Notes: a model not told the origin generated them from the sequence alone. Counted from the stretch's first letter, positions 2,964 through 24,710 are shown. The stretch is DNA of 28,682 bases from Bacilli bacterium (GCA_041667485.1 JBAYEZ010000001.1:1-28682); one strand, 5' to 3'. Numbers and translations are program-made.

Positions 2964-2980
2964 AAGAGCTCCTTTCCGCC

Positions 2981-3103: not shown

Positions 3104-3124
3104 GTCTTGTCCGCCTTCGGAAAG

Positions 3125-3270: not shown

Positions 3271-3314
3271 AAAAAGAAAACAAAAAGCGGAATCCCTCAT
3301 TAAGTATCCGCTTT
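3271..3314 (-). terminator. Intrinsic terminator of guaB
   Basis: AAAGCGGA-N15-TCCGCTTT followed by a T-rich tail on the minus strand. Confidence 0.6.
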
Positions 3315-3328
3315 ATTTCGATGCCGTC

Positions 3329-4801: not shown

Positions 4802-4881
4802 AGTCTATGTTCCTTTCCGAAAAATAGAAAATTCGGAAGCTCCTTTAAATAATTATACGGAGTCGGAAGGCGATGAGAGAT

Positions 4882-4920
4882 AAAAAATAAGGAAAACGCT
4901 TCCAAGAACGGGAAGCGTTT
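4882..4920 (-). terminator. Hairpin/terminator after guaA
   Basis: 10-bp inverted repeat AAACGCTTCC-N7-GGAAGCGTTT, then TCCTTATTTTTT on the minus strand. Confidence 0.6.
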
Positions 4921-4949
4921 CTAACCATTTTTTATATAAAAAATGCCGT

Positions 4950-6485: not shown

Positions 6486-6515
6486 TTAGTTTCTCCTTAA
6501 TTTGAGGTTTATCAC

Positions 6516-7037: not shown

Positions 7038-7121
7038 AGTTAAACTCCTTTGGGAAGGGGATTAAACCCCGAATTGGAAAACAACGTTCTTTATTCTATT
7101 GTTTCTTCGTTCATCTTGCTA

Positions 7122-7709: not shown

Positions 7710-7901
7710 AAAGAGAAAGGCTCCTTTATAAACAATTCATTCATTTTAGCTGAGAGAAAATAAAAAACGAGACGCGTTTTATCATTATTTATAAAGTATA
7801 TAAATAAGCCATTCTCGGAGAGCGCTTTCATGGTCTTCCGCAACCGCATTTGATACCCAAAAACGAAAAAGGTTGCGATAATGGAAGTGCCAAAAATTGG
7901 C

Positions 7902-7970
7902 ATTCGTATATTCTCCCTAATCGGTGGGACCGTCTCTACGCCAGGACCATATAATCCAGGCACTACGAAT
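7902..7970 (+). promoter_or_regulatory. Purine riboswitch aptamer with guanine signature (C74)
   Basis: P1 ATTCGTA/TACGAAT; J2/3 GTCTCTAC; L2 GG and L3 CC kissing bases; J3/1 AC with the specificity base C at 7963; lies upstream of a purine-type ABC importer. Confidence 0.88.
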
Positions 7971-7971
7971 C

Positions 7972-7998
7972 AAACCAAAAGAACTTTATGGTTTTTTT
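7972..7998 (+). terminator. Expression-platform terminator of the riboswitch
   Basis: AAACCA-AAAG-AA-CTTT-A-TGGTTT followed by a T run, immediately after P1. Confidence 0.55.
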
Positions 7999-8059
7999 GT
8001 CTTTGAGGAGATCGTTTTCCATTTTCATAGGAAGAAAATGCGAGAAAAGGATCAAAGGC

Positions 8060-9421
8060 ATGAAAAACCATTTGAATGTCGTCTTGTTCTCCCTCATCGC
8101 TGCGGCCGGAGCTACTTTGCTCGCTGGCTGCGGGCCCGCCACTGCTTCATCGGCAAACGGATCGGCTTCGGGGGCTCCCACCACTTCGGCGCCCGCTTCG
8201 AAGAAAATTGGCGTCGTCCTCATCGGCGATGCAACCGAAGGTTACAGCGCAGCTCACATTGATGGCATCAACGAGGCCGCGGCAGAATTAGGCATTTCCG
8301 ACCGTCTCCTCTACAAATACAAAGTTCAAGAAGACGATGGCTGCAAGACTGCCATCGATGATTTGGTCAGTGAAGATTGCGGCTTAATCATCTCCAACAG
8401 CTATGGTCACCAAGACTACATGGCCCCGGCCGCCAAAGCCAACAAAGACGTCACCTTCATCTCGATGACTGGCGACTACGCCGCCGTTTCGAAGATCAGT
8501 AATTTTAAGAATGCTTTTGTCTCGATTTATGAAGCTCGCTACGTCTCGGGCATCGTCGCTGGCATGAAATTAAAAGAATTAGCGGATGGCAACAAGCTCG
8601 ACACCACCTTCAACCAAGATGGGAATGGCAACTGGAAAATCGGCTACGTCGGAGCTTATAAGTACTCCGAAGTCGTCTCGGGCTACACCGCCTTCTATCT
8701 CGGCGTCAAATCCGTCATCTCAAATGTCGTCATGAAGGTACAGTTCACCAATTCGTGGTTCGATATCTCTGGCGAAGGCGCCGCTGCCGACGCTTTGGTC
8801 AAGAATGGCTGCGTCGTGATTGGCCAACATGCCGATTCGACTGGCGCTCCGGCCAAAGTCCAGTCCCTCTTAGGCACGGCGCGGGCTGATGATGCCACAA
8901 AAAAGTATGTCTGCTATTCCGTAGGCTTCAATATTGATATGATTCCGACCGCCAAAGATGCCGCTTTAACCTCAGCCATCAATATTTGGAAGGTCTATTA
9001 CAAGTACGCGTTCACCCAATACCTCAACGGCCGAACGATCGACACCGATTGGTGCAAAGGCTATGCCGATGGCGCGGTTGGCACTTCGACGCTCAATACG
9101 TCTTGTGCCGCTGGTACCCAAGCCGCCGTTGATACCGCAGTTGCTGCGATCAAAGCCGGCACTCTCCACGTCTTCAACACCGCGAATTTCACTGTGGGCG
9201 GCAAGACGCTCACCAGCGCGATTATCGATCTTTCGCACTACGATTACAGCACCGGCAGCGCCCAGCTTGTTTACGAAGGCGACAAAGTCGAAGCAATCAA
9301 GAAAGACGGCGACGTCTCCTTCTTCTCTGAGAGCACGCTCCGTTCCGCTCCGTACTTCAACGTCGGCGTTGATTCCTCCTTCGCCCTCATCGATGTCGAT
9401 GGCATTTCGGTTCTGAGCTGA
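8060..9421 (+). CDS. BMP-family ABC transporter substrate-binding lipoprotein (purine nucleoside/base)
   Basis: Start reassigned to ATG 8060 (AAAGG upstream); signal peptide with lipobox LAGC; Ser/Thr/Ala linker; IGYVGA, SWFD, QHADST motifs. Confidence 0.88.
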   Translation: MKNHLNVVLFSLIAAAGATLLAGCGPATASSANGSASGAPTTSAPASKKIGVVLIGDATEGYSAAHIDGINEAAAELGISDRLLYKYKVQEDDGCKTAIDDLVSEDCGLIISNSYGHQDYMAPAAKANKDVTFISMTGDYAAVSKISNFKNAFVSIYEARYVSGIVAGMKLKELADGNKLDTTFNQDGNGNWKIGYVGAYKYSEVVSGYTAFYLGVKSVISNVVMKVQFTNSWFDISGEGAAADALVKNGCVVIGQHADSTGAPAKVQSLLGTARADDATKKYVCYSVGFNIDMIPTAKDAALTSAINIWKVYYKYAFTQYLNGRTIDTDWCKGYADGAVGTSTLNTSCAAGTQAAVDTAVAAIKAGTLHVFNTANFTVGGKTLTSAIIDLSHYDYSTGSAQLVYEGDKVEAIKKDGDVSFFSESTLRSAPYFNVGVDSSFALIDVDGISVLS

Positions 9422-9440
9422 TTCTCCACCAAGCTTTTTG

Positions 9441-9463
9441 GGAAGGGGCTAACCGCCCCTTCC
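9441..9463 (+). other. Intercistronic GC-rich stem-loop after the binding-protein gene
   Basis: GGAAGGGGC-TAACC-GCCCCTTCC, a 9-bp stem followed by TTCTTCGTT. Confidence 0.65.
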
Positions 9464-9485
9464 TTCTTCGTTATTAAGGAATCTC

Positions 9486-11054
9486 ATGACCCAAGAAATC
9501 GAACTCAAAAACATCACAAAATGCTTCGGCGGCAATGTAGTGGCAAACCACAACGTCTCTTTGGCGATAAACCAAGGAGAAATTTTGGCTCTTCTGGGTG
9601 AGAATGGCAGCGGAAAAACGACCTTGATGAACATGCTTTCGGGTCTCTATTATCCTGACGAAGGCACGATTCTCGTCGAGGGCAAGGAAGTCAAAATCAC
9701 CTCGCCGAAGAAAGCCTTTGAATTTGGGATTGGCATGGTCCATCAGCATTTCAAACTAATCGATACCTTCACGGCCGGCGAGAACATCATCCTCGGACTC
9801 AATGGGGGTTTCTGGCTCAAAATGAAGGACGTCAATGCTAAAATAGCCGCCCTCTGTTCCCGTTATTCTTTCGAGATCGACCTCAACAAAAAAATCTACG
9901 ACATGAGCGTTTCCGAGAAGCAGAAAGTCGAGATCGTCAAACTGCTTTATCGCGGAACCAAAACTCTGATTTTGGATGAGCCAACAGCCGTGCTGACCCC
10001 CCAAGAGACCGATAATCTTTTTAATGTCCTCCGTCTCATGAAAAAAGACGGTAAGGCGATTGTCATCATCACCCACAAACTCAATGAAGTTCTCTCTCTT
10101 TCCGACCGAGTCGCGATTCTCCGAAATGGCGAACTCATCAAAACTCTTTTGACCAAAGAAACGAATGAAGGCGAACTGGCTGATTCTATGGTGGGCGAAC
10201 ACGTTAAACTCAACATCGCCCGCGCCAAGCCAGTCCAGCCGCAGAAAGTTCTCGAAATCAACCACCTTTCCACCATCGACGCCTACGGGGTGAAGAGTTT
10301 GAAAGATGTTTCCTTCTACGCCAATAGCGGGGAAATCCTCGGCATCGCCGGCGTGAGTGGAAGCGGCCAAAAAGCCTTGCTCGAGGCCATCGCCGGACTG
10401 CAACGCTGCGAAAAAGGCTCTTCGATCCTCTACCGCTATGACGAAAAGAAAAAGATCCCCGAGCCCGCTAAGCGAGGCAAAAAGACCGCTTTACTTCCCG
10501 ATCAATGCGAACTGGTCGGCAAATCGGTAAAGCAAATCAAAAATCTCGGCATATCCCTCGCCTTTGTCCCCGAAGACCGTTTAGGAATGGGCCTCGTCGG
10601 TGAGATGGACATGGTTGATAACATGATGTTAAGAAGCTACGAAAATGGCAATTCGCCATTCCTTCGTTATCAGGAGCCGAGCGCCTTAGCCGAAGAAATT
10701 AAAACGAAACTCGCCGTCAACACGCCTTCGGTAAAAACGCCGGTCCGCAAACTCTCTGGCGGCAACGTCCAAAAAGTTCTCGTTGGCCGCGAAATTGCCT
10801 CATCGCCGCGAGTTTTGATGACCGCCTACGCCGTCCGCGGGCTTGACATCAACACTTCTTACTCTATTTACAACATCCTCAATGATCAAAAAAAAGCCGG
10901 ATTATGCGTCATTTATGTCGGCGAGGATTTGGATGTTCTTTTGGAACTGGCCGATCGAATCGTCGTTCTCTGCGATGGCAAAGTCACGGGCATCCTCGAT
11001 GCTCGCAAGACCAGCAAAGCTGAAGTCGGTGCTTTGATGAGCAAGCAAAAATAA
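9486..11054 (+). CDS. ABC transporter ATP-binding protein, tandem domains (CUT2/nucleoside type)
   Basis: GENGSGKT, GMVHQHF, LILDEPTAVL, FVPEDR, LSGGNVQK. Confidence 0.93.
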   Translation: MTQEIELKNITKCFGGNVVANHNVSLAINQGEILALLGENGSGKTTLMNMLSGLYYPDEGTILVEGKEVKITSPKKAFEFGIGMVHQHFKLIDTFTAGENIILGLNGGFWLKMKDVNAKIAALCSRYSFEIDLNKKIYDMSVSEKQKVEIVKLLYRGTKTLILDEPTAVLTPQETDNLFNVLRLMKKDGKAIVIITHKLNEVLSLSDRVAILRNGELIKTLLTKETNEGELADSMVGEHVKLNIARAKPVQPQKVLEINHLSTIDAYGVKSLKDVSFYANSGEILGIAGVSGSGQKALLEAIAGLQRCEKGSSILYRYDEKKKIPEPAKRGKKTALLPDQCELVGKSVKQIKNLGISLAFVPEDRLGMGLVGEMDMVDNMMLRSYENGNSPFLRYQEPSALAEEIKTKLAVNTPSVKTPVRKLSGGNVQKVLVGREIASSPRVLMTAYAVRGLDINTSYSIYNILNDQKKAGLCVIYVGEDLDVLLELADRIVVLCDGKVTGILDARKTSKAEVGALMSKQK

Positions 11055-11066
11055 AGGGGATTTGCG

Positions 11067-12311
11067 ATGGATAAAACGGAAAAAAACAAAAAAGAAGCCT
11101 TAATCCGCATTGCCAAACGCGATGATCTTTCTTTTGGCAAACGCGCCTTGATCCGCACCTTTTGCGTCATCTCTGCCATCCTCACCTGCATCCTTCTTTT
11201 ATGGGTCATCGGCCTCAAGGATCCTTTTCCGGCCATCGGCCTCATTTTCGATGGGACGTTCAAAGGCGTTTTCGATGGCAACTTCAAAAAGTTGATCCCC
11301 GCCCTCCAAGCCATGGTGATGCTCTTAGGGATTTCCGTCGCTTTAGCCCCGGCCTATCAGATGAAGTTCTGGAATGTTGGCGCCCAAGGCCAAGTCTTGA
11401 TGGGAGCCCTCGGAGCCTGCGTCTGCATGATTTATGGCCATAGTCTTCCCAATAGTTTATTGATTTTTCTCTCCTTCTTGGCCGCGGTCAGTTTCGGTGC
11501 AATCTGGGCGATGATTCCGGCCCTCTTCAAAGCCAAATGGAATACGAACGAGACCCTTTTCACCTTGATGATGAACTACATCGCGATCCAACTCGTCAGT
11601 TTCTGCACAATGCTGTGGCGCGGCAAAAACAGTTCGATGTCGCTCATCAATTCCGCAAGCGAAAAAGGATGGTTGCCCCATTGGGGTGGCAACGACATGC
11701 TCTTACCGCTCGCGGTGGTTGTGATTATGGTCATCTTAATGTGGGCTTATCTCAGCAAAACCAAGCACGGCTATGAATTGACCGTCATTGGCGACAGCGT
11801 CAATACGGCGCGCTATACGGGCATCAAAGTCAAATGGGTCATCATCCGGACTTTGCTTCTCTCGGGCGCTTTGTGCGGTTTAATGGGCTTTCTCTATGCC
11901 GCCGGAATCGAGCATAAAATCTCGGTCGACACCTCTGGATCTTATGGTTTTACCGCCATCATCGTCTGCTGGCTTTCCTATTTTAATCCGTTCCTAATGG
12001 GTGTCTTCTCGTTGTTAATCGTCTTCCTCGACAAAGGGGCGATGAACCTCAAAAACGCCGCTTACGCACCTGCCCTCAACGAGTACTCGTGCGAGTTGCT
12101 TGTCTTCGTCATCCTCGTTTCAATCATGCTATCAGAATTCTTCATCCGTTACCGCCTGCTCTTCAGCGATTCGTTTAAAGAAAAGACGGGCATACTCTGG
12201 CATAAAATCACTTCTTTCTGTAAAGACCCATTTAAACCCCATCAGCCTCTAGCCTCTCCAGCTCCATCGAATCAAATGGCCCCCGAGAAAAAGGAGGAGA
12301 AAAATGAATAA
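11067..12311 (+). CDS. ABC transporter permease (nucleoside type)
   Basis: FWNVGAQGQ, NETLFTLMMNY, YGFTAIIV; multi-TM. Confidence 0.9.
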   Translation: MDKTEKNKKEALIRIAKRDDLSFGKRALIRTFCVISAILTCILLLWVIGLKDPFPAIGLIFDGTFKGVFDGNFKKLIPALQAMVMLLGISVALAPAYQMKFWNVGAQGQVLMGALGACVCMIYGHSLPNSLLIFLSFLAAVSFGAIWAMIPALFKAKWNTNETLFTLMMNYIAIQLVSFCTMLWRGKNSSMSLINSASEKGWLPHWGGNDMLLPLAVVVIMVILMWAYLSKTKHGYELTVIGDSVNTARYTGIKVKWVIIRTLLLSGALCGLMGFLYAAGIEHKISVDTSGSYGFTAIIVCWLSYFNPFLMGVFSLLIVFLDKGAMNLKNAAYAPALNEYSCELLVFVILVSIMLSEFFIRYRLLFSDSFKEKTGILWHKITSFCKDPFKPHQPLASPAPSNQMAPEKKEEKNE

Positions 12312-13290
12312 CATCATTGCTTGGATTACTTACTCGGTGGTTTATGCCTCGATCATCATGATGGGCGCATTGGGCGAAACGCTGACTGAGAAGAGCGGCC
12401 ATCTCAACTTAGGGGTTCCTGGTGTTATGTACATCAGCGGCTTCTTAGGCTACTACGCAACCTTCTGCTACGAACAATCCACGGCAAATCCCAATCCGTT
12501 CTTGATTGTTGTCATTTCTCTAGGGGTCGCCGCCATCGTCGGCGGGTTCGCCGGTTTCCTCTATTCGCTTCTCTGTGTCAGTTTCAAATGCAACCAAAAC
12601 GTAGTCGGCCTCTTGCTGACTGCCGTCTGCGTCGGCTTCTCAAAATCGATTTCCTTCGCGGTTGGCATCACCACCACTTCAAAAGCGGATTTCTCAGGCA
12701 CAGTTTTTAATGCGCGAATCCCCGGCCTCTCTGCCATCCCCTACATAGGGCCAGTTCTCTTTGGCTATGGTTTTAGCGTCTACCTCGTCATCCTCTTAGC
12801 GATCCTCGCTGGGATCTTCCTCAAAAGGACCCGCTATGGCCTCAATCTCCGTTCTGTGGGCGAATCCCCTGCGGCTGCCGATGCAGTCGGCATCAACGTC
12901 ACCCGTTATAAATATGTTACCACTGTCGTCGGCTGCGCCATCTGCGGCGTCGGTGGCGTCATGTACGTTCTCGGCTATGGCGGTGGTCAATGGTCGACCA
13001 ATAACGACATCGAAGCGATAGGCTGGCTCTCGGTCGCCCTCGTCATCTTCTCAAGTTGGAAACCCATCCACCTTATCTGGGGCTCAATCATCTTCGGCAT
13101 TCTTTTCTGGGCCTACAATTATTTGCCCCACGTCGTCGCGCTCCCGAGTTTCACCGGGGCGGGCGAACTCCTCAAAATGCTGCCTTATATCGTCACCATC
13201 ATCGTCCTCGTCGTCAATTCGGCAAAGAAGAAAAAGGAGAATCAGCCCCCGGCCTCGTTAGGCATCTCCTACTTCCGGGAGGAGCGATGA
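12304..13290 (+). CDS. ABC transporter permease (nucleoside type)
   Basis: LTEKSGHLNLGVPG, LRSVGESP, GWLSVALVIF, LPYIVTI; overlaps the previous gene by 8 nt. Confidence 0.9.
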   Translation: MNNIIAWITYSVVYASIIMMGALGETLTEKSGHLNLGVPGVMYISGFLGYYATFCYEQSTANPNPFLIVVISLGVAAIVGGFAGFLYSLLCVSFKCNQNVVGLLLTAVCVGFSKSISFAVGITTTSKADFSGTVFNARIPGLSAIPYIGPVLFGYGFSVYLVILLAILAGIFLKRTRYGLNLRSVGESPAAADAVGINVTRYKYVTTVVGCAICGVGGVMYVLGYGGGQWSTNNDIEAIGWLSVALVIFSSWKPIHLIWGSIIFGILFWAYNYLPHVVALPSFTGAGELLKMLPYIVTIIVLVVNSAKKKKENQPPASLGISYFREER

Positions 13291-13367
13291 AAGCGTTTCA
13301 CTGAAAAAATACTGAACCTTCCTGTTGCAATACGTTAAAATAAAAAATTAGAAAAGAGGAGATAGTC

Positions 13368-14027
13368 ATGGATTTATCTCAATATCCGAATGCGGTTTTG
13401 CTAAATCATCCTTTACTCCAGCACAAAATCACGCTTTTGCGCGATAAAAACACTCCGACGAGCGTCTTCCGTCCCTTGGTGAAAGAGATTGCAATGCTCG
13501 AGGGTTACGAAGTCCTCAAAAACCTGCCGACCGAGCCCTTAGAAGTCGAAACCCCGATCGAAAAGACCGTCCAACCCACCGTGAGCGGCAAAAAAATCTG
13601 TTTTGTCCCAATTCTCCGAGCGGGCATGGGGATGGTCGATGGCTTCCTCTCCCTCTTGCCAACCGCCCATTGCGGCCATATCGGCCTTTACCGCAACGAG
13701 GTGACACACCAGCCGGTCGAGTACTATTGCAAACTCCCCGCCGGCCTCGCTGACATGAATATCTATCTCCTTGATCCGATGCTTGCCACCGGCGGAAGCG
13801 GCATCGATGCCGTCAAAATTCTCAAGAATCACGGTGCAAAGAAGGTTACCTTCGTCTGCATCATCGCCGCCCCCGAAGGCGTCGAAGCTTTCTGCAAAGA
13901 GAATCCGGACATCCCGCTCTACTTCGGCGCCCTCGACCGCTGCCTCAACAAAAACGCCTATATTTGCCCGGGTCTCGGGGATGCAGGCGATCGAATCTTC
14001 GGCACCGTCGGCGGAACAGTTAAATAG
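13368..14027 (+). CDS. upp: Uracil phosphoribosyltransferase
   Basis: HPLLQHK, PILRAG, GLYRNE, DPMLATGGS, PGLGDAGDR. Confidence 0.97.
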   Translation: MDLSQYPNAVLLNHPLLQHKITLLRDKNTPTSVFRPLVKEIAMLEGYEVLKNLPTEPLEVETPIEKTVQPTVSGKKICFVPILRAGMGMVDGFLSLLPTAHCGHIGLYRNEVTHQPVEYYCKLPAGLADMNIYLLDPMLATGGSGIDAVKILKNHGAKKVTFVCIIAAPEGVEAFCKENPDIPLYFGALDRCLNKNAYICPGLGDAGDRIFGTVGGTVK

Positions 14028-14586
14028 CCTTCGTCTTCAACAAGTCGTCCAGCGCCTTCACTTCCTCCTCCGTCGGCACATAGACGTAAGGGGTGTTGCG
14101 TTCAAGGCCGTTGTAGTCAAGGCCATAGCCTAATAAAAACTTATTCTCCGTTAAAACTCGTCCCGTGAAATCGACTTGAACGTCGACCTTGCGGGCGATT
14201 TTTTTATCAAAAAGCGCGCAAATCAGAATCCGTTTGGGCTTGCCAAGACTTAAAAGGTGTTCCTTGAGAAAGGTCATCGTGAGACCGGTGTCCACCACAT
14301 CCTCCACCACGATGACACTGCGGCCATCGATTGGAGTCGTGATGTCCCGCTTAAGATGGACGATGCCCGTCGATTGGGTGCCGCTATAGCTTTCGAGCTG
14401 AACATAATCCTCAAGCAAAGGAACGGAAACGTACTTTAAAAGATCGACCATAAAAGGCATCGCGCCTTTCATCACGCAGATAAAAAGAGGCAACTTCTCC
14501 TCGTTCTTCAAAAGCGTGGTTAACTTTTGGCCCAAATCAGCGCAAGTGATCTCAATCGCTTGGTGCGACATTACCATTTCTTTCAT
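14020..14586 (-). CDS. hpt: Hypoxanthine(-guanine) phosphoribosyltransferase
   Basis: VMKGA, SYSGTQSTG, VVEDVVDTGLT, GYGLDY. Start reassigned to ATG 14586 (GGAGG SD). Confidence 0.94.
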   Translation of the reverse strand: MKEMVMSHQAIEITCADLGQKLTTLLKNEEKLPLFICVMKGAMPFMVDLLKYVSVPLLEDYVQLESYSGTQSTGIVHLKRDITTPIDGRSVIVVEDVVDTGLTMTFLKEHLLSLGKPKRILICALFDKKIARKVDVQVDFTGRVLTENKFLLGYGLDYNGLERNTPYVYVPTEEEVKALDDLLKTKAI

Positions 14587-14723
14587 CGATAGCCTCCGAG
14601 ATAACTTTTTATTATAAATGCTTGTAGGGGCAAAGGACACCCCCAGCGGAAAAAGCAAAAAAGAAAGCGCTTAGAATGGAAAAAGAACTCCGACGAAATT
14701 ATACTAACGTAATGGGAAAAAAC

Positions 14724-15659
14724 ATGGAACAAGAAAGCCAAGCGCCCCTCCTTTTTACCCTCGGAGCGAACCCTACTGTTTCCCACGAGGTTTCCACCCT
14801 TCTTAATTTGCCTTTAGCGCCGAATAAAGTCACACACTTTGCTGATGGCGAAACCTTCGCCAAACCGCTGTGTCCGGTCACGAACCGCCACTGCATCATT
14901 ATTCATTCGACCTTCAACCCCGTCAGCGCTCGCTTGATGGACTTGCTGGTCTTTGTCGATGCCTTAAAGAATGCCGACGCCGCCTCAATCACGGCCATCA
15001 TTCCTTATTTTGGTTACGCAAGGCAAGACCGCATCATTGAAGAGGGCGATCCAATCAGCGGCTTACTAGTAGGCAAAATCCTCCAAACGGCCGGCGTCGA
15101 CCGCATCGTCGTGATGGATTTTCACTCGATGAAACTGCTCGACCGATTCCCGGAAGAACATATCAATCTTTCGGCCGCGCCGATTTTCGCCCACCGCTTC
15201 CTTGAAGACCTTGATGAAGCCAAAATTATGGCCAACAATGTTTGTGTCGTTTCGCCAGACCACGGCGGATTGACCCGTGCTCAAAATTTCGCTGCAAATT
15301 TCGAAGGGGCGGGTTTTGCCTACGCCATCAAGAATAGACCGCAGCCGAATAGAGCGGTCATCGAAGGCATCGAAGGCGATTTTAAAGGCAAACTTTGCCT
15401 TATCATCGATGACATCATCGATACGGCCGGTACCCTCTCCGAGGTGGCTAAGTTCCTTTTAGCCAACGGCGCCAAAGAAGTTTGGGTTGCCGCCACCCAC
15501 GGCATTTTCTCGGGCCGGGCTGTCGAACTCATCAAGGAAGCTAATATCAAAAAAGTCTATATTGCCAACACGATTGAATCAAACCAAGAGAGAGCTGAGA
15601 TTCTCTCAATCGCTCCGATTATCGCCGATTATATCCGCGCAAACTACGCCAAACACTAA
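14724..15659 (+). CDS. prs: Ribose-phosphate pyrophosphokinase (PRPP synthetase)
   Basis: FADGE, PYFGYARQDR, VVSPDHGG, IIDDIIDTAGT, ATHGIFSG. Start uncertain (14676, 14712 or 14724); 14724 gives a typical N-terminal length. Confidence 0.92.
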   Translation: MEQESQAPLLFTLGANPTVSHEVSTLLNLPLAPNKVTHFADGETFAKPLCPVTNRHCIIIHSTFNPVSARLMDLLVFVDALKNADAASITAIIPYFGYARQDRIIEEGDPISGLLVGKILQTAGVDRIVVMDFHSMKLLDRFPEEHINLSAAPIFAHRFLEDLDEAKIMANNVCVVSPDHGGLTRAQNFAANFEGAGFAYAIKNRPQPNRAVIEGIEGDFKGKLCLIIDDIIDTAGTLSEVAKFLLANGAKEVWVAATHGIFSGRAVELIKEANIKKVYIANTIESNQERAEILSIAPIIADYIRANYAKH

Positions 15660-17224
15660 TTCTTAATGGGATGAACCTCGTGACAGACGGGGCAGACAAA
15701 CTCGCCCTTCGGCGTCAGTTTTGTGATGTTGCGAAAGAAGAGCGACGCTTCGACTTTCCGGTAGTAACGCCACATCTCATTTTTGCTAAACAGGGCGGGA
15801 TTGACAGATATCTTCTTAAAAGAAGCGATGTCGGTGTAAGTATAGGACTCGCCTGTTTTGGGGCACTTCGTTTCCTGAATCAAGGTGTGGCAACTATCAC
15901 ATTCATAGCCCCCATCTTTCTTCCGCTTATGGAGTTTGCCCGCGCAAAAGGGGCACTCGTCTCGCGCCGTATCGCTCCTGACCATCGCCCGCAAAAGAGC
16001 CTGCTGAATCCGTCGAAAGGAATCGATTGCTTCAACGCTAATGAATAAAGCGGAAGGATCGAGCGTTTCTTCTTCAAAAGGCTCGGTGAGCAAGTCTTCA
16101 TCATGGGGGTACTTAGCGGCCAATTTCTCGAGTTCCGGCGTCCATAGTCCATCGAGGGTCGGAAGGAAAAGGAGCCGATAGATTTTCTCTTTGCTGACCT
16201 CGACCATCATGGCTTTCCCTTCAAGGTTGCTCAAATGGACCTTCCAGGTTTTATAAGCCAGGGAGAGATCAAGGTTCGTCAGGTCCATCACCGCTTTCGG
16301 ATCCGCTTCAAAATTGAATTGGGTGATTGCAAAAACAATGAGGGTCTGGACGAAATTGAAGTAGTTTTTGCAGAGATTTTGCTCATTGACGGGTTTCGCT
16401 TCAACCATCGCCGCATCTTTTTTGGCGAAGAAGGCCTTGGCCAATTTATAGATTTGGTGGTAATCCTTCTGCATAATGAAAATATTCGTTTTCTTTAGGG
16501 TCAGTCGCTTATTTCTTATTTTGTTCTTTTGGTAGATCGGCTTAATCAAGCGGGATTGAATCACATTGGCAGCGCTTTGAAGTTCATCATAGAGCTGGTC
16601 GGCTAGAGCAAAATATTTCTCAAAATCCCTGATATATCCCGTATGGAGTTTGCCGATCGTCAAAAAATAATTCAGATGGTTCGAGCGTTCCAAAAGATTG
16701 AACTGAAGAATCTCTTTGGCGTAGACCACGTCCTTCAAGGCGGTGACATTGGTACGAATGTAATGCATGATTGCGTCGATCAAGTTACAGAAGATGACAT
16801 TCTCATAAATGCTGTAGTCATCCTCGTAGACTCGAGTCAATAATTGGCGGGGCTTCACGCCCTTAGCGGTGATATCGGAGGCATTCTCGGTGTGATTGGC
16901 GAGATGTTGCATCGTCTCCTGATTAATGATCCGGACCGTCGCAACGGGCAAAACGTCGCTGCCGTCGGTCAGATTGATAATCGGCTTAGCGAAGATTCGT
17001 TTGATTGCCGGCAAGGCCAGATTGACTTTCTCCAACATGCTTTTGAGTCCATCAAAATCGAAGTTGGGCTCGACAGCAAATAAGGTTAGATCATGGATGG
17101 TATAATAATCAAACTCAATGAAATTAAACGAAGAATGCTGGTCGAAGAAATGACCTAATGGGGCTAAAACCTCGTCGAGGCGCGTCAGATCTTCGACTTG
17201 CTTCTCGTCCGTTTCCTTCCTCAT
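15656..17224 (-). CDS. DUF2357/McrC-like protein with C-terminal Cys-rich (Zn-ribbon) region
   Basis: PRQLLTRVYEDDYSIYENVIF resembles the DUF2357 YDxYEN motif; DYHQIYKL; C-terminal CPFC, CDSC, CP, CPVCH. Starts 2 nt after the stop of a McrB-like GTPase; start reassigned to 17224 (GAGG SD). Confidence 0.7.
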   Translation of the reverse strand: MRKETDEKQVEDLTRLDEVLAPLGHFFDQHSSFNFIEFDYYTIHDLTLFAVEPNFDFDGLKSMLEKVNLALPAIKRIFAKPIINLTDGSDVLPVATVRIINQETMQHLANHTENASDITAKGVKPRQLLTRVYEDDYSIYENVIFCNLIDAIMHYIRTNVTALKDVVYAKEILQFNLLERSNHLNYFLTIGKLHTGYIRDFEKYFALADQLYDELQSAANVIQSRLIKPIYQKNKIRNKRLTLKKTNIFIMQKDYHQIYKLAKAFFAKKDAAMVEAKPVNEQNLCKNYFNFVQTLIVFAITQFNFEADPKAVMDLTNLDLSLAYKTWKVHLSNLEGKAMMVEVSKEKIYRLLFLPTLDGLWTPELEKLAAKYPHDEDLLTEPFEEETLDPSALFISVEAIDSFRRIQQALLRAMVRSDTARDECPFCAGKLHKRKKDGGYECDSCHTLIQETKCPKTGESYTYTDIASFKKISVNPALFSKNEMWRYYRKVEASLFFRNITKLTPKGEFVCPVCHEVHPIKN

Positions 17225-17226
17225 CC

Positions 17227-19908
17227 TTAGTCCTCGTTGAGCTTCGAAACGAATTCGGCGCATTTGTTGAGGTGGAGATTCTGGAAGGATTCGACCAATT
17301 CTTCTTTGTTATCAATTGTCTTCACTTCGAGCTTGCTGACGACTTTGCTAAGAAGGATCGTTTCGATCGCCTCGTCTTCAACTGGGCCGCCGGCAAAGCA
17401 GGCTTCATAAATTACGACGAAGTCCTCAATCTGCTTCATGATACGGTTACCAAAGGAAATATTGTACGGGGATAAGAGCGCTTCGGTCTTTTGGATCAAG
17501 AGGTTGTTCTCGGCATCGAAATGGCCCTGAGACTTCGCCTCTTCAAATAAGGCGTTGAGTTGGGCATAGGTGTAGAAACGCCGCGAAATCGGACTCGAAG
17601 AAGCGTCACGGACCTTTGGCGCGCGATGATTGAAGTTCATCGTGTGAGCCCGATCGTAGACCTTGTCGGAAATCACGAAGGTTGATTCGTCGCGGTTGGC
17701 GGTGCCGATGAACCAGATATTAGAAGGAATCATCATCGTCTTCCCGTCGGCGAGGAGCGAATACGCCTTATCGCCTTCAGGGATCTTTTGGACAAGGGGA
17801 ATGTTTAGGAGCTGAATCTGGCGTTTTCCTTCCTCGTTTTCCATGAGCGAAAGGAAATCGGAAAAGTAATACTCGATGCGGGAAAGATTCATTTCATCAA
17901 GGACAATGAAGGTCGGAATCTCCGGATTGAGAGCGGCTTTGTAGAGAGCCTGCGTGAACTTTTTCGGCGAATAACGCTCTGAGAACTCGTTGTAATAGCC
18001 CAGAAGTTCGTTTTTGTCTTTCCATGAGGACTCAACTTCGACAAGATCGCAATCGCCGTCGATCGCTTCCATGAAAATTTTCGGAAGGGAGGTCTTGCCA
18101 GTCCCCGACATGCCTTGAAGAATGGTCAAGCGAGTCGCGCCTAGACCAGCGACAAAAGCGGCGATATCTTGCGCGCTATAGGAGAGATGAAGCCGGCAAT
18201 CTTTGGCATACTCCACCACAAATTTCACCAAATCGTTGAGCGAGGCGGCCTTAACGGCGAGTTTCTTCCGCTCATCGATATCTTTTTGAAAAATTTCTTT
18301 TTCGGCGTCCAATGCGCTAAAAGCAGGGCACGGATCAAAAACGACGGAGGAATTTGCGGGGATTTTTTCATTTTTCTTTTCAGGCAGAACAGCGGTTGCC
18401 GCTTCATCCCCTCCGATAATGAGTGGCTCCTCCTTGAAAATTTTGCGAGCAATCATCACGATGAGGAGAACCACATCGATGTAGAGCATATAAACCACGT
18501 CGGTCCGCATCGAATACTCGATGCTTTCGTTATAGGTATAGCCGTAAAGAATCAAAAGCTTCTTGGTGTTTTCGATGTTGATCTGGGTTGCAATCGAGAA
18601 ATAATAACCTGAGATGCCGAAAACAAACATGAAGGCGACGTTGACCAAGATAGCCGCTTTGGCGACCGCGACGTAACGGCGGTCTCGCGCAATGAAACTG
18701 GTCAAAGAAACAAGGAGGGCGATTCCTGTCGAAATCAGCATGACGACAAGGGCGAAGGCGGTGACCTGGTAGCCCGAGCCCAACTGTCCGTATTTCTGCA
18801 AAAGTTCAATCCCCGTCAACTTAACTTCGGATTTGTAACTGCCTGAAACAAAACCGACATCGATGACGTTGAGGAACAAGGAACCAATGGAAATCGCAGT
18901 AACAACGAAAACGTAAATCAAGAGTTCAATTCGTTGAGAAGAATGCATCTCTTTTTTCTTTCGGATTCGCTCCTCTTCGGGCCCAGAATAATAATCAAAG
19001 CGGCCTTTGAGAACGGCAAAGACAATCTCGGCAACTGCCATGAGCAAGAGCGGAACAAAAGCGGTCGAACGGACTTCGTAGTTCTTGAGGGCATAGACAT
19101 AATCGATAATGAAACCCAATAAAAAGAACTCAAGAGCGACGCCGAATTCAAGGAAAAACAAGATTTTCGAATTGGCCATGAAACGTTTCTTGTCGCTGAA
19201 GAAATAGGAGAGCGAAGACAAAAAATAGAGCAAGCACAAAATAAACAGCATCACTTGGACCAAAAGAAAAATCGAGTCTTCCGCTTGGATGCTTTTACCC
19301 ACCAAGACGTTGAATAAAATGCAGATATTATTGTTGACCGAGCCATGGAACTCGTAAAGCGGAACCGTCAGCATCGCAATCAATAGGATCAAGGTTGCGA
19401 TGAGATCCATCAGCAGGCCGCCGGTGGCTAAGGGCTTGGCCTTCGCGGCATTCTCTTCCGAAATCGACGCTGCCCCATCGGCAGGTTTCTTCCCAAGAAC
19501 AAGGAAGGTGAAAGCCCCAAGAATCAAAAGCAAGGCAAAAACGACGAGAGCGATGGCCCAGCCACTCAGTTCTTTAAAAACCGCATTGAAGGCAAAGAAG
19601 GCCAAACAGAGGCAAATCCCATAGGCAATCGTGAAGAAAAATGGCGTCTTCTTTTTCTTAACCAAACCCGCAATGCTAAAGCCGAGGGGCAAAAGATAAA
19701 GAAAAAAGGCGATATCCAAAACGAGAGCGAAAGTCTTTTCGTTATCAAGACCACTCTCGGTGGCAAAAGGAATACTCCAAAGAGAGTAGGCGCTCCGGCC
19801 TCCTGATAAAGGAAGCATCAAAATACCAAGATTAAAGAAGAAGACTAAACATAATAAACCCAAGGCTATCGCTTTGAATAACCACGGTTTTCTATCCAAT
19901 ATTTTCAT
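17227..19908 (-). CDS. Polytopic membrane protein (about 12 TM) fused to a C-terminal McrB-like AAA+ GTPase
   Basis: Walker A GMSGTGKT (18091-18114), Walker B FIVLDEMNLSRIEYYFSDFLS, GTANRDES (NxD, 17686-17706), DKVYDRA; 12 hydrophobic segments N-terminally. Start uncertain; 19908 chosen because TGCTATGAT (extended -10-like) lies upstream of it inside the longer ORF. Confidence 0.82.
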   Translation of the reverse strand: MKILDRKPWLFKAIALGLLCLVFFFNLGILMLPLSGGRSAYSLWSIPFATESGLDNEKTFALVLDIAFFLYLLPLGFSIAGLVKKKKTPFFFTIAYGICLCLAFFAFNAVFKELSGWAIALVVFALLLILGAFTFLVLGKKPADGAASISEENAAKAKPLATGGLLMDLIATLILLIAMLTVPLYEFHGSVNNNICILFNVLVGKSIQAEDSIFLLVQVMLFILCLLYFLSSLSYFFSDKKRFMANSKILFFLEFGVALEFFLLGFIIDYVYALKNYEVRSTAFVPLLLMAVAEIVFAVLKGRFDYYSGPEEERIRKKKEMHSSQRIELLIYVFVVTAISIGSLFLNVIDVGFVSGSYKSEVKLTGIELLQKYGQLGSGYQVTAFALVVMLISTGIALLVSLTSFIARDRRYVAVAKAAILVNVAFMFVFGISGYYFSIATQINIENTKKLLILYGYTYNESIEYSMRTDVVYMLYIDVVLLIVMIARKIFKEEPLIIGGDEAATAVLPEKKNEKIPANSSVVFDPCPAFSALDAEKEIFQKDIDERKKLAVKAASLNDLVKFVVEYAKDCRLHLSYSAQDIAAFVAGLGATRLTILQGMSGTGKTSLPKIFMEAIDGDCDLVEVESSWKDKNELLGYYNEFSERYSPKKFTQALYKAALNPEIPTFIVLDEMNLSRIEYYFSDFLSLMENEEGKRQIQLLNIPLVQKIPEGDKAYSLLADGKTMMIPSNIWFIGTANRDESTFVISDKVYDRAHTMNFNHRAPKVRDASSSPISRRFYTYAQLNALFEEAKSQGHFDAENNLLIQKTEALLSPYNISFGNRIMKQIEDFVVIYEACFAGGPVEDEAIETILLSKVVSKLEVKTIDNKEELVESFQNLHLNKCAEFVSKLNED

Positions 19909-20224
19909 GGGGAGGTCGCTCGCTTTCGCTGCATGGGTATCATAGCACTTACGCATACTCGCACGGAAACGAGAATTCGTAATTCGGGTTCTCCGTGCGT
20001 CGGCGGAAGAGCAAGAGACAAAAAACAAAAAGGGCACGAATAGATTGTTCCAATGCGTTATAAAAACGCAATCTCTTCAAAAACTCGTTGTTTTCTTCGA
20101 AATACCAAGATCCAGCCGACCCGTTTAACAAATCAATTTCACTTTTCTGAAAATGCACCATTCAAAAATGAGATATTATCAATAAGAAGAAGCGCGAGCC
20201 TCAAAGGTTCTCTTCCGCTGAATA

Positions 20225-20520
20225 ATGAACAAAGGAAACACACATCGCTGGAGTTGGAAATTTTGGCCGTTGCGGAATAAGGTCTTCCTTTTGATGCTTC
20301 TTATCTCTCTTCTCCCGGTCGGCTTCGTCACTGGTTATTCAATCTATTCGATTTCCGACACGATGAAGCAGCGTTCGATTAACGATTTAAAAACAGCGTT
20401 CTTTGGCTTCAAAACAAGCTGAGCGACACGACAGCAAGCTATACTCGAATTTTCTTGGAATTTGAAACGGACACCGATTTTTGCAATAGTGTTTCGACAG
20501 CTTCATCAGCGACCTTTTGA
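20225..20520 (+). pseudogene. Remnant of a membrane sensor (histidine kinase or chemoreceptor) 5' end
   Basis: LRNKVFLLMLLISLLPVGFVTGYSIYSISDTMKQRSINDL is a typical TM1 plus start of an extracellular domain. Restoring one A in the A5 run near 20390 continues KNSVLWLQNKLSDTT...; a stop follows at 20520. Confidence 0.5.
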
Positions 20521-20713
20521 TACAAATGCTTTCCTAGGCCGCACGATGAGAAGAGAAGGCTGCTTTACCGGAATCGATTCGAATATATCTTTGCCTTTCG
20601 AAGGAAGGAAGTTAAATATTTCTCCGCTTTTGGAACGATGAGAGCAATGATTGGTTCCCCGTCAGCAAACAGGTGCTCGAATTTGAAATTGAGACTGGGG
20701 TTCAAACTCTTCG

Positions 20714-20893
20714 CTAAGAAATTAGCAAAATGATCTGATTACACTTATCTCCATAATGCTCATTCAGATATTTGGCAAATATATTCTTCAGCAAATATGA
20801 TTTGCCACATCTTCTCACACCGGTTATAACTTTCGGAAATCCATTGTTTATCGATTTTATAAGGATTGATAGATATTTGTCCCTTTTAATCAC
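20714..20893 (-). pseudogene. 5' fragment of an AAA_14/DUF4143-type ATPase gene
   Basis: GTG start with AAGGAG SD: VIKRDKYLSILIKSINNGFPKVITGVRRCGKSYLL (Walker A variant GxRRxGKS); the frame breaks after about 59 codons. Confidence 0.72.
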
Positions 20894-21042
20894 TGCTTCT
20901 CCTTTTTGGTAGAATTCTACCTTTTTAGAGATTCTTAATAGCAATAAATTCTACCTGTGGATAGTTTTGTTATTAGAAGTAAAAACTTCTTCTCTTTTTT
21001 TACAAACGAGGGTGGCGGGTAGAGTGGAGATCTCCACTCACG

Positions 21043-21070
21043 AAAAAAGAGAGCCTGGGAGACTCTCTTT
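21043..21070 (-). terminator. Intrinsic terminator downstream of tRNA-Ala
   Basis: AAAGAGAG-N9-CTCTCTTT plus a T run on the minus strand. Confidence 0.65.
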
Positions 21071-21179
21071 CTATAATTGGCTTACTTGATGCTAGGCTTC
21101 ATCGGCTTAGTAATAGCAAACCTTAACGCAATCGCCCTTTCGATACGAGTATCAAATGAGTGTGCGTCTGGCGACCATT

Positions 21180-21255
21180 TGGTGGAGCCAACGGGGATCG
21201 GACCCGCGACCTCCTCGTTGCGAACGAGGCGCTCTCCCAGCTGAGCTATGGCCCC
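21180..21255 (-). tRNA. tRNA-Ala (anticodon CGC), encoded CCA
   Basis: GGGGCCA TA GCTC AGCTGGGA GAGC G CCTCG TTCGCAA CGAGG AGGTC GCGGG TCCGATC CCCGT TGGCTCC ACCA; 76 nt, G3:U70 and A73 alanine identity elements. Confidence 0.96.
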
Positions 21256-21977: not shown

Positions 21978-23348
21978 TTATTTTCCTGAATCGTCACCAT
22001 CATCGCCTTCGGCAGGAGCGTTGAGAGAAGCCGGGGCATCCGGCAAACCATCGCTATCTTCGTCGATACCGGAAAGGTCGGCCGAATTGATCTTGCCAAA
22101 ACGACCGGTAATCTTGCGAACCGTCGTCCCCATTTGCGTCGTCTTTGAAGCCGCCGCGGTGATGCTCCGTTGGAGCGAATCCCAGCGTTCGGCAAAACGG
22201 TTGAACTCTTGACCAAGGCCTTTGAGGGCCTCTTCCATCTTTTCCATATTCTTGCTCCGCTCCGCTTCCATTGCTGCGTTATGGAAGACAACGACGATCG
22301 CCTGCAAGGTCGAAGGGCAGGCCAAGATGACGCCGAGTGAGCGTGCTTCGGCGACCAAATCAGGAAATTCGTTTTCGACAAAAGCAAAGACACCATCGTT
22401 TGGAATGAACATGATAGCGTAGTTTGGCGTCAGATTGGGAATGATGTATTTATCCGCAATATCCTTATACTTCTTTTTAACCTCGGCGCTAAAGCTGCTT
22501 CTCAAGGCACTCTTTTCCGTCTCTTCCATCGTCGTCCCGGAGAAGAGCTTGGCATAATCGGAAAAGGGGAACTTGCTATCAATGCAAAGTTTGCTGGTCT
22601 TGCCATTCACGGTGAAAACCAAATCGGCATCAGGCCGAACCTTCTCATCGCCTTTGGTGAAGCCGAGATCATCCTGAAGGTTGTAGTATTTGCCTTTACC
22701 GTTGGGGAACGTGTTCTCTAAGAGCATCGAAAGCTGGAGTTCGCCATAGGCCCCACGGGTCTGATTTCCCTGCAAAACCTGGTTCAAACTAGTCACATCG
22801 TCCTGCAAACTCTGCAGGTGTTTTTGGGCATCGTCGATTGCCCCGAGTTGCTTTTTGAGCTCACCCATCGTATCGGAGTTGCCTTTGAAACCATCCTGAA
22901 GCGATTTATTGACCCGGTCGTTGATATCTTTGAAATTGTCCTCGACCTTCTTATTCATCGCCGCCGTATTGTCGCTCAAACTCTTATTGATAACCGCCAT
23001 CTGGTCGTTGACCGCTTTGGTGAGATTAAGTTGAAAGCCCTGCATCCGCTGATTGTCCTTTTCGGCTTGCTCATTGAAGGAACGCTGAAGCGAGGCCATC
23101 TGCTCCGCTGTCTTTTGTGAAATAACGAGGGGAATGCTTTCTTTGAGGACGCTGAGATTCCCGGCGAGAGTTTGGACGTCATTGTGGAGAGACTGTAAAT
23201 TGACCTGAAGTACTTTGATTTGTTCGAGCTCAATCGACGAAGAATTTTCCACTTTGCTCCGCTTAATTAAGAAAACCAAAATGACAATTGCCAAAGCTAA
23301 AATCGCGACGCCAACGACAATTAGAGCAATTAATAATGAAGTATCCAT
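21978..23348 (-). CDS. rmuC: DNA recombination protein RmuC
   Basis: N-terminal TM, coiled-coil, RGAYGELQL, PDA...IDSKFP, AIMFIPND, CPSTL. Confidence 0.92.
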   Translation of the reverse strand: MDTSLLIALIVVGVAILALAIVILVFLIKRSKVENSSSIELEQIKVLQVNLQSLHNDVQTLAGNLSVLKESIPLVISQKTAEQMASLQRSFNEQAEKDNQRMQGFQLNLTKAVNDQMAVINKSLSDNTAAMNKKVEDNFKDINDRVNKSLQDGFKGNSDTMGELKKQLGAIDDAQKHLQSLQDDVTSLNQVLQGNQTRGAYGELQLSMLLENTFPNGKGKYYNLQDDLGFTKGDEKVRPDADLVFTVNGKTSKLCIDSKFPFSDYAKLFSGTTMEETEKSALRSSFSAEVKKKYKDIADKYIIPNLTPNYAIMFIPNDGVFAFVENEFPDLVAEARSLGVILACPSTLQAIVVVFHNAAMEAERSKNMEKMEEALKGLGQEFNRFAERWDSLQRSITAAASKTTQMGTTVRKITGRFGKINSADLSGIDEDSDGLPDAPASLNAPAEGDDGDDSGK

Positions 23349-23473: not shown

Positions 23474-24710
23474 ATGGAACGAGTTATCGCGGTCATTGAC
23501 CTCAAGAGTTTTTATGCCTCGTGCGAGTGTGCCTGCCGCCACCTCGATATTTTCACAACCCCACTCGTCTGTTGCGATCCTTATCGCTCCGCCTCAAGCA
23601 TCGTGATGTCAGCCACTCCCTATCTTAAAAAGAAATATGGGATTCCCAATGTCTGCCGCCGCCGCGATCTTCCCATCGTTCCTGACATGATCTATGCCGT
23701 TCCTCGGATGTCCTATTATCTTCAGGTGTCGGCAAAAGTGGTTTCGATCCTTCTCGACTATGTTGCGGCGGAAGATCTTCATATCTACTCAGTCGATGAA
23801 TCCTTTCTCAATCTCGGTCCTTATCTCGATCTTTATCACTGCAGTCCCGAAGAATTAGTGGCTCGAATTCAAAAAGACATCAAGAAGAAACTAGGGCTTG
23901 TGGCCACCGCAGGAATCGGTCCCAACGTGTTTTTGGCAAAAATTGCTCTCGATAACGAAGGCAAAAAGAAGCCGCCTTATCGCTCACTGGGATTATGAGG
24001 ATGTCCCAAATAAGCTCTGGACGATCAGTCCCATCACCAAAATCTGGAGCATCGCCACCGGCACCAGCGGCCACCTAGCTCGAATTGGAATTCGAAGCAT
24101 CTATGAACTTGCCCACGCTTCCGATGCGCTGCTCCAAAAAGAATTCGGCATCATGGGCGAGCAACTCAAGAACTTGGCCAATGGGCGCGACGAAAGCGAT
24201 ATCACCATCAAGTACGCCCCAGAGAACGTCTCACTCTCTCTTGGCCAAACTTTACGGCGCGCTTATTACCCTTCTGAAGCCTTGCTTCTGCTTCGTGAAA
24301 TGGTCGACGATTTATCAAACCGATTGAGATCTACAGGGTTTTTATGTGAAAAAGTCTCGGTCTGGGCTTCTTATGGCGGGCGGGAAACGTTTGGCAAGCA
24401 AATGGCTTTGCCCATCGCCACCGATGATACCAATTCGCTCTATGATGCCGCCAAAGCGGTTTTCTCTTACCGAGCTGAGCTCCCGATTCGGGGGTTGGGT
24501 TTGGCCTTTGGCAAACTCATCCACGCAAGCCGTGAACAAGGCTCCTTATTTCTCGCGGCCGAAGAGCGGCAAGAGAGACAGCGGCTTGACGCTTCGCTCA
24601 ATGCAATCCGCTCCCGCTATGGCAAAAACAGTGTGCTCCGTTGCTCCTCACTTTTGCCGGGTTCAACGATTAAGACTCGACATGAACAGATTGGAGGACA
24701 TAAGCAATGA
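23474..24710 (+). pseudogene. Y-family DNA polymerase (UvrX/YqjW/UmuC-like), split by one frameshift near 23960-23985
   Basis: IDLKSFYAS, YSVDESF and GIGPNVFLAKIALD in the first frame; IAHWDYEDVPNKLW...IGGHKQ in the next frame. A single +1/-2 shift joins them into about 412 aa. Confidence 0.85.

Follow-up and report, generated by a model that had tools for sequence, protein, structure and literature searches.

McrBC is the textbook example of a restriction enzyme driven by guanosine triphosphate (GTP). The McrBC branch with a shortened, NxD-type signature was mapped as late as 2024 and, to our knowledge, has seen no bench test. The NxD variant, followed by E or D, defines the McrB branch that holds the CoCoNuT systems (CnuB/CnuC; Bell, Sahakyan, Makarova, Wolf and Koonin, eLife 2024; PMC11090510). 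The same paper names, without analysing it, the CoCoPALM arrangement, in which a membrane-anchored NxD McrB is accompanied by a nuclease-less McrC-like partner. Here we describe a two-gene locus of this branch from a Bacilli bacterium (GCA_041667485.1; JBAYEZ010000001.1:1-28682). The window, that is, the whole stretch of DNA analysed, is an entire 28.7-kb contig (28,682 nucleotides) from a bin of 1.2 Mb that is 73% complete. We are highly confident that the locus encodes a membrane-embedded NxD McrB GTPase and a nuclease-less DUF2357 zinc-ribbon partner. This 12-helix McrBC-type pair belongs to the known NxD branch and is, as far as the searchable literature shows, a membrane version not described before.

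A twelve-helix membrane GTPase and its McrC-like partner

The pair lies in two open reading frames on the minus strand, 17227..20037(-) and 15656..17263(-). Gene 1 (17227..19908(-)), as delimited from the reading frame and the alignment of homologues, encodes an 893-amino-acid fusion of a 12-helix membrane domain to an McrB-like NxD GTPase. Its start is most likely the ATG at 19908, because the N-termini of the homologues read MKxLxKK. Gene 2 (15656..17224(-)) encodes the McrC-like partner of 522 amino acids, and its translation is coupled to that of gene 1. At the junction the sequence is GAGGAC-TAA-GG-ATG, where the TAA occupies 17229-17227 and the ATG 17224-17222; gene 2 begins 2 nt past the gene 1 stop, and a Shine-Dalgarno-like GAGGA run precedes its ATG. 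The original prediction, made from the DNA alone, had described a coupled pair with TAA-GG-ATG at 17229-17224 and a 4-nt overlap with the prs gene. The junction sequence is as claimed, and the overlap was confirmed by the stop codons, since the TAG of gene 2 is at 15658-15656 and the stop of the convergent prs gene is at 15657-15659.

The C-terminal part of gene 1 (residues 528-893; 17230..18327(-)) was identified as a AAA+ GTPase domain of the McrB type by hhalign, PDB profile search, Foldseek and PADLOC. The alignment to E. coli McrB by hhalign had a probability of 97.1% and an E-value of 7.5e-11. When a profile of the GTPase domain only was compared with the PDB, E. coli McrB chains alone were retrieved (E 1.7e-6 to 4.8e-6), and the next match was at E 0.095; the prediction that the domain is of the McrB type and not of the MoxR/RavA type was borne out by this search. 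Membership in MoxR/RavA was rejected on sequence, as no MoxR/RavA protein matched the GTPase profile at E-values up to 10. In Foldseek, the top matches by E-value were Thermococcus gammatolerans McrB. The Pfam AAA_5 model scored below its curated cut-off (17.5 versus 22 bits), and the family is too divergent for this general model.

The Walker A motif GMSGTGKT (18091..18114(-)) and the Walker B motif DEMN, within VLDEMN (17887..17898(-)), are invariant in 35 homologues, and the latter aligns with DEIN of McrB. The NxD signature N-R-D-E (17686..17697(-)), a shortened form of the McrB NxxD that starts at N738, is invariant as well. In the alignment to E. coli McrB, its N matches the N of N-T-A-D, and its D stands one position earlier. 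All of the gene 1 motifs quoted beforehand, including GMSGTGKT, are present. We conclude that gene 1 encodes a membrane-embedded NxD McrB-type protein, whose GTPase activity is predicted from its sequence.

Hydropathy analysis of gene 1 gave 12 membrane segments in residues 7-492. An AlphaFold2 model, built with 35 homologues, had a mean pLDDT (predicted score in the local distance difference test) of 77.7, with values of 80-93 across most of its membrane region. It contains the same 12 helices as the hydropathy profile, followed by a disordered linker and the AAA+ domain. The two methods concur on the polytopic membrane domain of about 490 amino acids and about 12 transmembrane helices that had been proposed. 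Module 1 (residues 1-146, helices 1-4; 19471..19908(-)) was delimited from hydropathy and from the model helices at residues 8-31, 52-84, 88-111 and 116-138. Module 2 (residues 147-322, helices 5-8; 18943..19470(-)), assigned from hydropathy and the model, has an outer beta-hairpin at residues 185-196 and a PLY motif (P183) that is invariant in the alignment. Module 3 (residues 323-493, helices 9-12; 18430..18942(-)), for which conservation was used in addition, has an outer beta-hairpin at residues 347-365 and the invariant residues G366, L370, Y380, Y436, I443 and Y473. Within the membrane domain, conservation is highest in this module and in the outer loops. Lysine and arginine together account for 35% of residues in the predicted inner loops, versus 8% in the outer ones, so that the positive-inside rule places both ends of gene 1 and the GTPase in the cytoplasm.

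A disordered cytoplasmic linker (residues 494-527; 18328..18429(-)), with pLDDT below 50 at residues 494-521, connects the two domains and ends in an invariant FDPCP motif (D525, P526 and P528). The median identity was 32% for the membrane domain versus 68% for the GTPase domain. Gene 1 had been predicted to have neither a reader domain nor a long coiled coil, and this agrees with the model: the 12 helices fill residues 1-493, and short helices only, at residues 528-591, precede the AAA+ core. Searches of gene 1 with Pfam and NCBIfam gave no reader domain, and those with Pfam gave no DNA-binding domain.

The fold of the membrane domain was compared with known structures by Foldseek. The full gene 1 model matched E. 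coli LetA (9n8w_A) with a probability of 0.96 and an E-value of 0.054 over 375 columns, and claudin-3/4, TARP gamma and GARLH4 were also matched, with target-normalised TM-scores near 0.5 (0.49-0.52 over about 190 columns for claudin-3, TARP and GARLH4); every E-value of these membrane-fold matches was 0.05 or worse. LetA is a lipid transporter with two tetraspan-like four-helix modules that carry outer beta-sheets, and a zinc ribbon stands before each of them (PMC13017536). Internal repeats in the membrane domain of gene 1 gave a weak signal (E 0.001-0.017), with alignments in register. As a weak, fold-level lead, the membrane domain may be read as three tandem four-helix modules resembling those of claudins, TARPs and LetA. 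No sequence similarity between the family and E. coli LetA was found by hhalign (probability 0.7%). The only stretch that hhalign aligned, residues 370-395 of gene 1 against residues 179-204 of LetA, was not significant (E 0.085); it sets the conserved outer-loop motif L-x-D-Y-A-x-L-x-x-G-Y against V-Q-D-Y-A-H-I-Q-A-G of LetA. A search of the ESM Atlas with the membrane domain alone returned unnamed small-protein clusters only, below the trust level, and the full-length gene 1 profile retrieved only hydrophobic noise (Kv channels and FliQ) from the PDB sequences.

One explanation outside defence is that the GTPase ring powers the tetraspan/LetA-like domain in lipid transport or scrambling, membrane remodelling or the biogenesis of surface structures in wall-less Bacilli, by analogy with CoCoPALM. 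We regard such a membrane machine as a serious alternative, if a rather unlikely one. The Foldseek matches and the nature of LetA, a lipid transporter of tetraspan-like modules with zinc ribbons, favour it, and so does the good conservation of module 3 and the outer loops, which is unlike that expected of an arms-race surface. On the other hand, the lack of sequence similarity to LetA and the E-values of all the Foldseek matches speak against it.

The partner, gene 2, had been called DUF2357-like. This description does not hold for the window protein taken alone, for which Pfam gave no match at E<0.1, and it holds at the level of the family, as DUF2357 was matched by 20 of 46 gene 2 homologues (best E-value, 7e-7). 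Two remote relatives found with the gene 2 query, P0221 and P0253, scored 31 and 39 bits, respectively, against a curated cut-off of 23.3. From these homologue matches, the DUF2357-like region was assigned to residues ~60-310 (16295..17047(-)), where P0221 and P0253 match. The ESM Atlas clusters nearest to gene 2 carry DUF2357 (score 0.96), and the gene that follows a relative of the GTPase on a Deinococcus plasmid is annotated as DUF2357.

A beta/alpha middle domain (residues 311-418; 15971..16294(-)), seen in the AlphaFold2 model and in column conservation, occupies the position of the McrC nuclease. Within residues 300-420 there is no invariant acidic or lysine column, and so no conserved D...(D/E)xK triad; the sole strongly conserved motif of the middle domain is an SFRRxQQ helix. 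No nuclease family of Pfam matched the window protein or the homologues scanned. The Cys-rich tail (15659..15970(-)) is predicted to bind zinc: C424, C427, C442, C445, C454, C511 and C514 are invariant, H518 is nearly invariant, and weak zinc-ribbon matches in Pfam occur across the family. Seven cysteines and a histidine suffice for two predicted zinc sites. The earlier view of a zinc-ribbon partner with no recognisable nuclease agrees with the invariant cysteines and the lack of a conserved triad. The AlphaFold2 model of gene 2 was confident (pLDDT 87.9; predicted template modelling score 0.81). Its Foldseek search returned nothing significant, with a YdjA-YdiS model best at E 0.005 and E. 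coli McrC seventh at E 0.31, and hhalign found nothing between the partner family and E. coli McrC. By its sequence features, gene 2 looks like a nuclease-dead zinc-ribbon McrC, akin to type II CnuC.

The pair was also found in many other genomes. More than 3000 database proteins matched gene 1 over its full length, with identities of 44-89%. A set of 36 loci was compared, 35 from other genomes and the window. At 35 of the 36, the next gene after the gene 1 homologue is a homologue of gene 2, and both reading frames are intact at 33, in several families. Three copies are broken: in L037 (G111), gene 1 is followed by a 1.4-kb gap with no gene 2 reading frame; in L042 (G549), gene 1 is split into 664 and 220 amino acids; and in L048 (G645), gene 2 is split into 320 and 195 amino acids. 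In a strain about 6% diverged from that of the window, the whole region is kept, with no insertion or deletion in either gene. Identical metatranscriptome contigs of 268 nt span the gene junction and hint at co-transcription; they come from two runs of the same size, possibly one data set filed twice.

An assembly chimera was rejected as the origin of the fusion, with full-length homologues in the thousands, the pair adjacent at 35 of 36 loci and the region intact in the diverged strain. The fusion is real, as it recurs in thousands of independent assemblies. The same data bear on the idea that the pair is a decaying or functionless McrBC relic that lost its reader and nuclease. The pair has no effector and no reader domain, a gene is split or missing at three loci, and the spacer upstream of gene 1 in the window is decayed, all of which a relic would explain. 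This idea is nevertheless strongly disfavoured, and we consider it extremely improbable: the pair is intact at 33 loci, the catalytic motifs and the seven cysteines are invariant, the genes of the 6% diverged strain are free of insertions and deletions, and full-length homologues number in the thousands.

Neighbouring genes, distribution and inheritance

The immediate neighbours of the pair were surveyed for 71 genes at 21 loci. No third gene is conserved across the 36 loci, and the common neighbour families include no nuclease family and no peptidase. BrxL, Drt3a/b, AbiEi, a DUF1848 reverse-transcriptase partner, PDC-S07 and an ISL3 transposase were each seen as single cases, and HipA, AAA_14/DUF4143 and Schlafen-AlbA2 genes adjoin some copies. 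The neighbourhood has a mild defence and mobile-element flavour and is no defence island. In the window, an RmuC-family gene (21978-23348) lies about 2 kb upstream of gene 1. It was considered as a hidden nuclease partner and rejected, since it has no counterpart at the other 35 loci. The statement that there is no methylase or nuclease gene nearby is essentially right. For the non-defence membrane machine, the mainly housekeeping neighbours and the lack of a nuclease or effector gene are favourable, and the lack of a lipid, MCE, secretion or peptidase gene as a conserved neighbour is unfavourable.

A further explanation is a membrane-anchored nucleic-acid translocase, comparable with FtsK/SpoIIIE or the type IV coupling proteins, in which the McrB ring would pump DNA inwards or outwards during uptake, conjugation or segregation, with the zinc-ribbon partner as a DNA clamp. 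McrBC has been described as a GTP-dependent DNA translocase (PMC11090510), and both the predicted membrane-anchored hexameric motor architecture and the zinc-ribbon tail on the partner would suit this role. However, genes for competence, conjugation, relaxases or partition do not recur beside the pair, the searches of gene 1 revealed no DNA-binding domain, the plasmid collection lacks the 12-helix form, and a role in chromosome segregation misfits the patchy distribution. We judge a translocase to be quite improbable.

The distribution was counted with the membrane domain as the query. Of 301 genomes from the host order, 30 carry the 12-helix form, as do 5 of 32 from the host genus. In the rest of the class, it turned up in only a few families with small genomes (8/30, 5/7, 7/22 and 3/11 genomes), and in none of the large families sampled. 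The carriers bear the public names Acholeplasmataceae, Izemoplasmatales, 'Tenericutes' and Bacilli bins. The penicillin-binding protein transpeptidase domain (PF00905) was not found in the window genome (G000) or in four of five other carriers, and one carrier, with a genome of 3.6 Mb, has the domain. In a maximum-likelihood tree of the GTPase domain, the 35 twelve-helix forms make up one clade (100/99), and their nearest outgroups are coiled-coil-fused forms. The branching is at odds with taxonomy: the window copy clusters with copies of another family, and four copies of its own genus cluster with yet another genus. The genomic context of the pair differs even inside one genus. Relatives of the GTPase domain occur on 287 plasmid records.

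Of 24 genomes sampled from the host genus, 21 have short NxD McrB forms with one helix, a coiled coil and an McrC-like partner, in some cases in several copies; the assembled part of the window genome yielded none. The frequency of these short membrane-anchored pairs, and that of the 12-helix pair itself in some families, would again fit a membrane machine with a task outside defence. In contrast, about 90% of the genomes of the order lack the 12-helix pair, among them most of the complete genomes from the host genus, and so it cannot be essential; the conflict of the gene tree with taxonomy and the broken copies also count against such a task.

Several other forms were noted in these searches. 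The closest outgroup to the 12-helix clade, L058 (MT835511.1, open reading frame 4789-7281), is a protein of 831 amino acids with a coiled coil of about 400 residues before the NxD GTPase; its record is an unverified, unannotated 46-kb 'Bacteriophage sp.' contig from human faeces. NxD McrB also has a third membrane version, represented by L010:718-2526 (G033) and L063 (G022:C36; a minus-strand open reading frame of 617 amino acids). Proteins of this type have about 606-617 amino acids and four N-terminal membrane helices, and form a well-supported clade of their own; no sequence similarity was detectable between their N-termini and the 12-helix domain. In L008 and L009 (G032 and G038), a gene for a small membrane protein stands directly upstream of the short form, as in the CoCoPALM arrangement, and the protein in L009 matches an S24-type signal peptidase.

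In the window, the pair is flanked on the gene 2 side by prs, a phosphoribosyltransferase gene and upp. These belong to a long nucleobase-salvage run at 1443-15659 that adjoins the pair and comprises GMP synthase, a sugar-type ABC transporter, upp, phosphoribosyltransferases and prs. In several carriers of the same genus, homologues of the ABC transporter and phosphoribosyltransferase genes are no more than a few kb away from the pair. On the gene 1 side are a 1.27-kb spacer (19909..21179, no strand), tRNA-Ala(CGC) at the spacer border (21180..21255(-)), a HAD hydrolase gene and rmuC. The spacer has a low G+C content of ~38-43% and short broken reading frames only. One of them has a P-loop that weakly resembles the start of AAA_14/DUF4143 ATPases (E ~0.01). 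A decayed ATPase of this family was our first impression of the spacer and is kept here as a remark only, this match being its sole basis. Intact AAA_14/DUF4143 genes stand directly upstream of the pair in L051, L052 and L053. Farther along, a DinB/ImpB-type polymerase gene (23474-24710(+)) is split into two overlapping reading frames, IMS at 23474-23998 and IMS_C at 23898-24710, and is a frameshifted pseudogene or an assembly error. The housekeeping proteins of the window have their nearest matches in uncultured 'Bacilli' and 'Mollicutes' bins, and DNA near-identical to the window was found in landfill, aquifer, bioreactor, wastewater and manure metagenomes.

A possible role in conflict and its mechanism

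We give even chances to the reading that the pair is a self-contained, horizontally mobile accessory module from the NxD (CoCoNuT-like) McrBC branch, with a role in conflict or defence. An accessory conflict role is our best guess because of the patchiness, the horizontal transfer, the changing gene context, a few neighbours of defence type, the occasional decay and the pedigree of the family. The original prediction had proposed a GTPase ring that would sense envelope events, or a repurposed motor; the evidence for a conflict module does not tell a sensor from an effector.

Several observations weigh against this reading. Most neighbours of the pair are housekeeping genes, and at the 36 loci the pair has no known effector domain and no conserved nuclease nearby, whereas CoCoNuTs with a dead McrC nuclease always have a separate nuclease nearby (PMC11090510). 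CoCoPALM pairs stand in signal-peptidase operons, and nuclease-less NxD McrBC pairs can thus do membrane jobs outside defence. The partner matches no PADLOC model, either as gene 2 of the window or as its homologue in G022. Part of the host genus keeps the pair near the same salvage genes, where it diverges about as fast as its neighbours; long vertical inheritance also fits this shared neighbourhood. The pair is frequent in some families (5/7 and 8/30 genomes), and in the collections searched the 12-helix form is on no phage or plasmid record. The GTPase core is very strongly conserved, as its median identity compared with that of the membrane domain indicates. Finally, RavA is among the Foldseek matches as well (probability 1.0), and McrB and MoxR can thus not be told apart by fold alone.

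Under the conflict reading, a mechanism can be outlined. By analogy with the solved McrBC structures, six gene 1 subunits would assemble into a GTPase ring beneath the membrane. This ring would be plugged by the DUF2357 part of gene 2, which would switch on GTP hydrolysis. Less well supported is the idea that gene 2, through its zinc ribbon and dead nuclease, may bind a ligand, either foreign nucleic acid or protein, and that the GTP-driven movement may be passed on to the membrane domain. As the module neither contains a nuclease nor has one nearby, its output would probably go through the membrane domain or through a ligand held at the membrane. Such an output, other than DNA cutting, might be the blocking or holding of incoming DNA at its entry site, or a leaky membrane as in abortive infection. 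Most of the hosts tested have no penicillin-binding proteins, and therefore phages and conjugative elements probably meet these cells at the cytoplasmic membrane. Taken as a whole, a GTP-driven ring with a zinc-ribbon McrC-like switch, driving three tetraspan/LetA-like modules to detect or block phage or plasmid entry at the exposed membrane of wall-less cells or to cause abortive membrane collapse, is a tentative proposal, and any one specific mechanism of the pair is unlikely.

This family swaps both the DNA reader and the nuclease of McrBC for a large, conserved membrane domain, and it is common in uncultured wall-less Bacilli of digesters, landfills, wastewater and guts. We know of almost nothing on phage defence in Mollicutes-like bacteria. 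If the proposal is true, the McrBC superfamily would gain a new effector logic, and prokaryotes a second use for the tetraspan-like fold. An immune role would mean a restriction-type motor that acts at the membrane and does not cut DNA, and would open a way to study how Mollicutes-like bacteria defend themselves against phages; if the pair is not immune, a defence motor would have been recruited into membrane biology. With two genes in 4.3 kb, the pair is small and directly testable.

Comparison with known systems

The original prediction called the system undescribed. This stands for the 12-helix architecture, on which no paper was found, and not for its parents, since the NxD/CoCoNuT-like branch and CoCoPALM were named in 2024 and PADLOC PDC-M26A matches the GTPase core. 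In the searchable literature there was no description of a polytopic McrB fusion, and no follow-up paper on CoCoPALM was found. Four members of this family, PKL00418, MCD4827107, TNF06952 and MCI1245436, were not among the entries listed in the accessible part of Supplementary file 3 of the CoCoNuT paper (PMC11090510).

The classical McrBC systems of E. coli and Thermococcus gammatolerans (type IV restriction; PDB 6hz4, 6ut6 and 6ut3-6ut5) share with the pair the AAA+ core, the Walker A and B motifs, an asparagine-aspartate signature and a two-gene operon with the DUF2357 activator downstream. Unlike them, the pair is of the NxD and not the NxxD type, is embedded in the membrane, and has no N-terminal reader of modified DNA and no PD-(D/E)xK triad. 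The match of PDC-M26A (E 1e-52) covers model positions 298-440 of 724 only; the GTPase core is all that is shared with PDC-M26, which is itself just a candidate system. Kiwa (KwaA/KwaB), a membrane-embedded defence supercomplex (bioRxiv 10.1101/2023.02.26.530102), is a system with which no homology is expected, and it has no NTPase ring. The LetA/tetraspan superfamily, with claudins and TARPs (PMC13017536), may resemble the pair in the predicted tandem four-helix modules, the outer beta-hairpins and the presence of zinc ribbons in the system. The resemblance is weak and at the level of fold, and here there are three modules instead of two, the zinc ribbons are on the partner protein, and there is no MCE partner.

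The closest likenesses are within the NxD branch. CoCoNuT and CoCoNuT-like systems share with the pair the NxD GTPase with a following E and a DUF2357-type McrC partner with a zinc ribbon, and type II CnuC also has no catalytic residues at the nuclease position. They differ in that gene 1 has a 12-helix membrane domain in place of a coiled coil, and in that the pair consists of two genes only, with no HEPN or other nuclease, helicase or TerY-P genes. With CoCoPALM, the pair shares a membrane-anchored NxD McrB and a nuclease-less McrC-like partner, and its GTPase domain is ~36-45% identical to that of CoCoPALM-like short forms in related genomes. In CoCoPALM, a single FtsB-like helix is combined with a coiled coil, and the genes are linked to those of a signal peptidase, whereas the 12 helices of gene 1 come with no coiled coil, the pair has no peptidase neighbour, and the 12-helix forms make up a separate clade.

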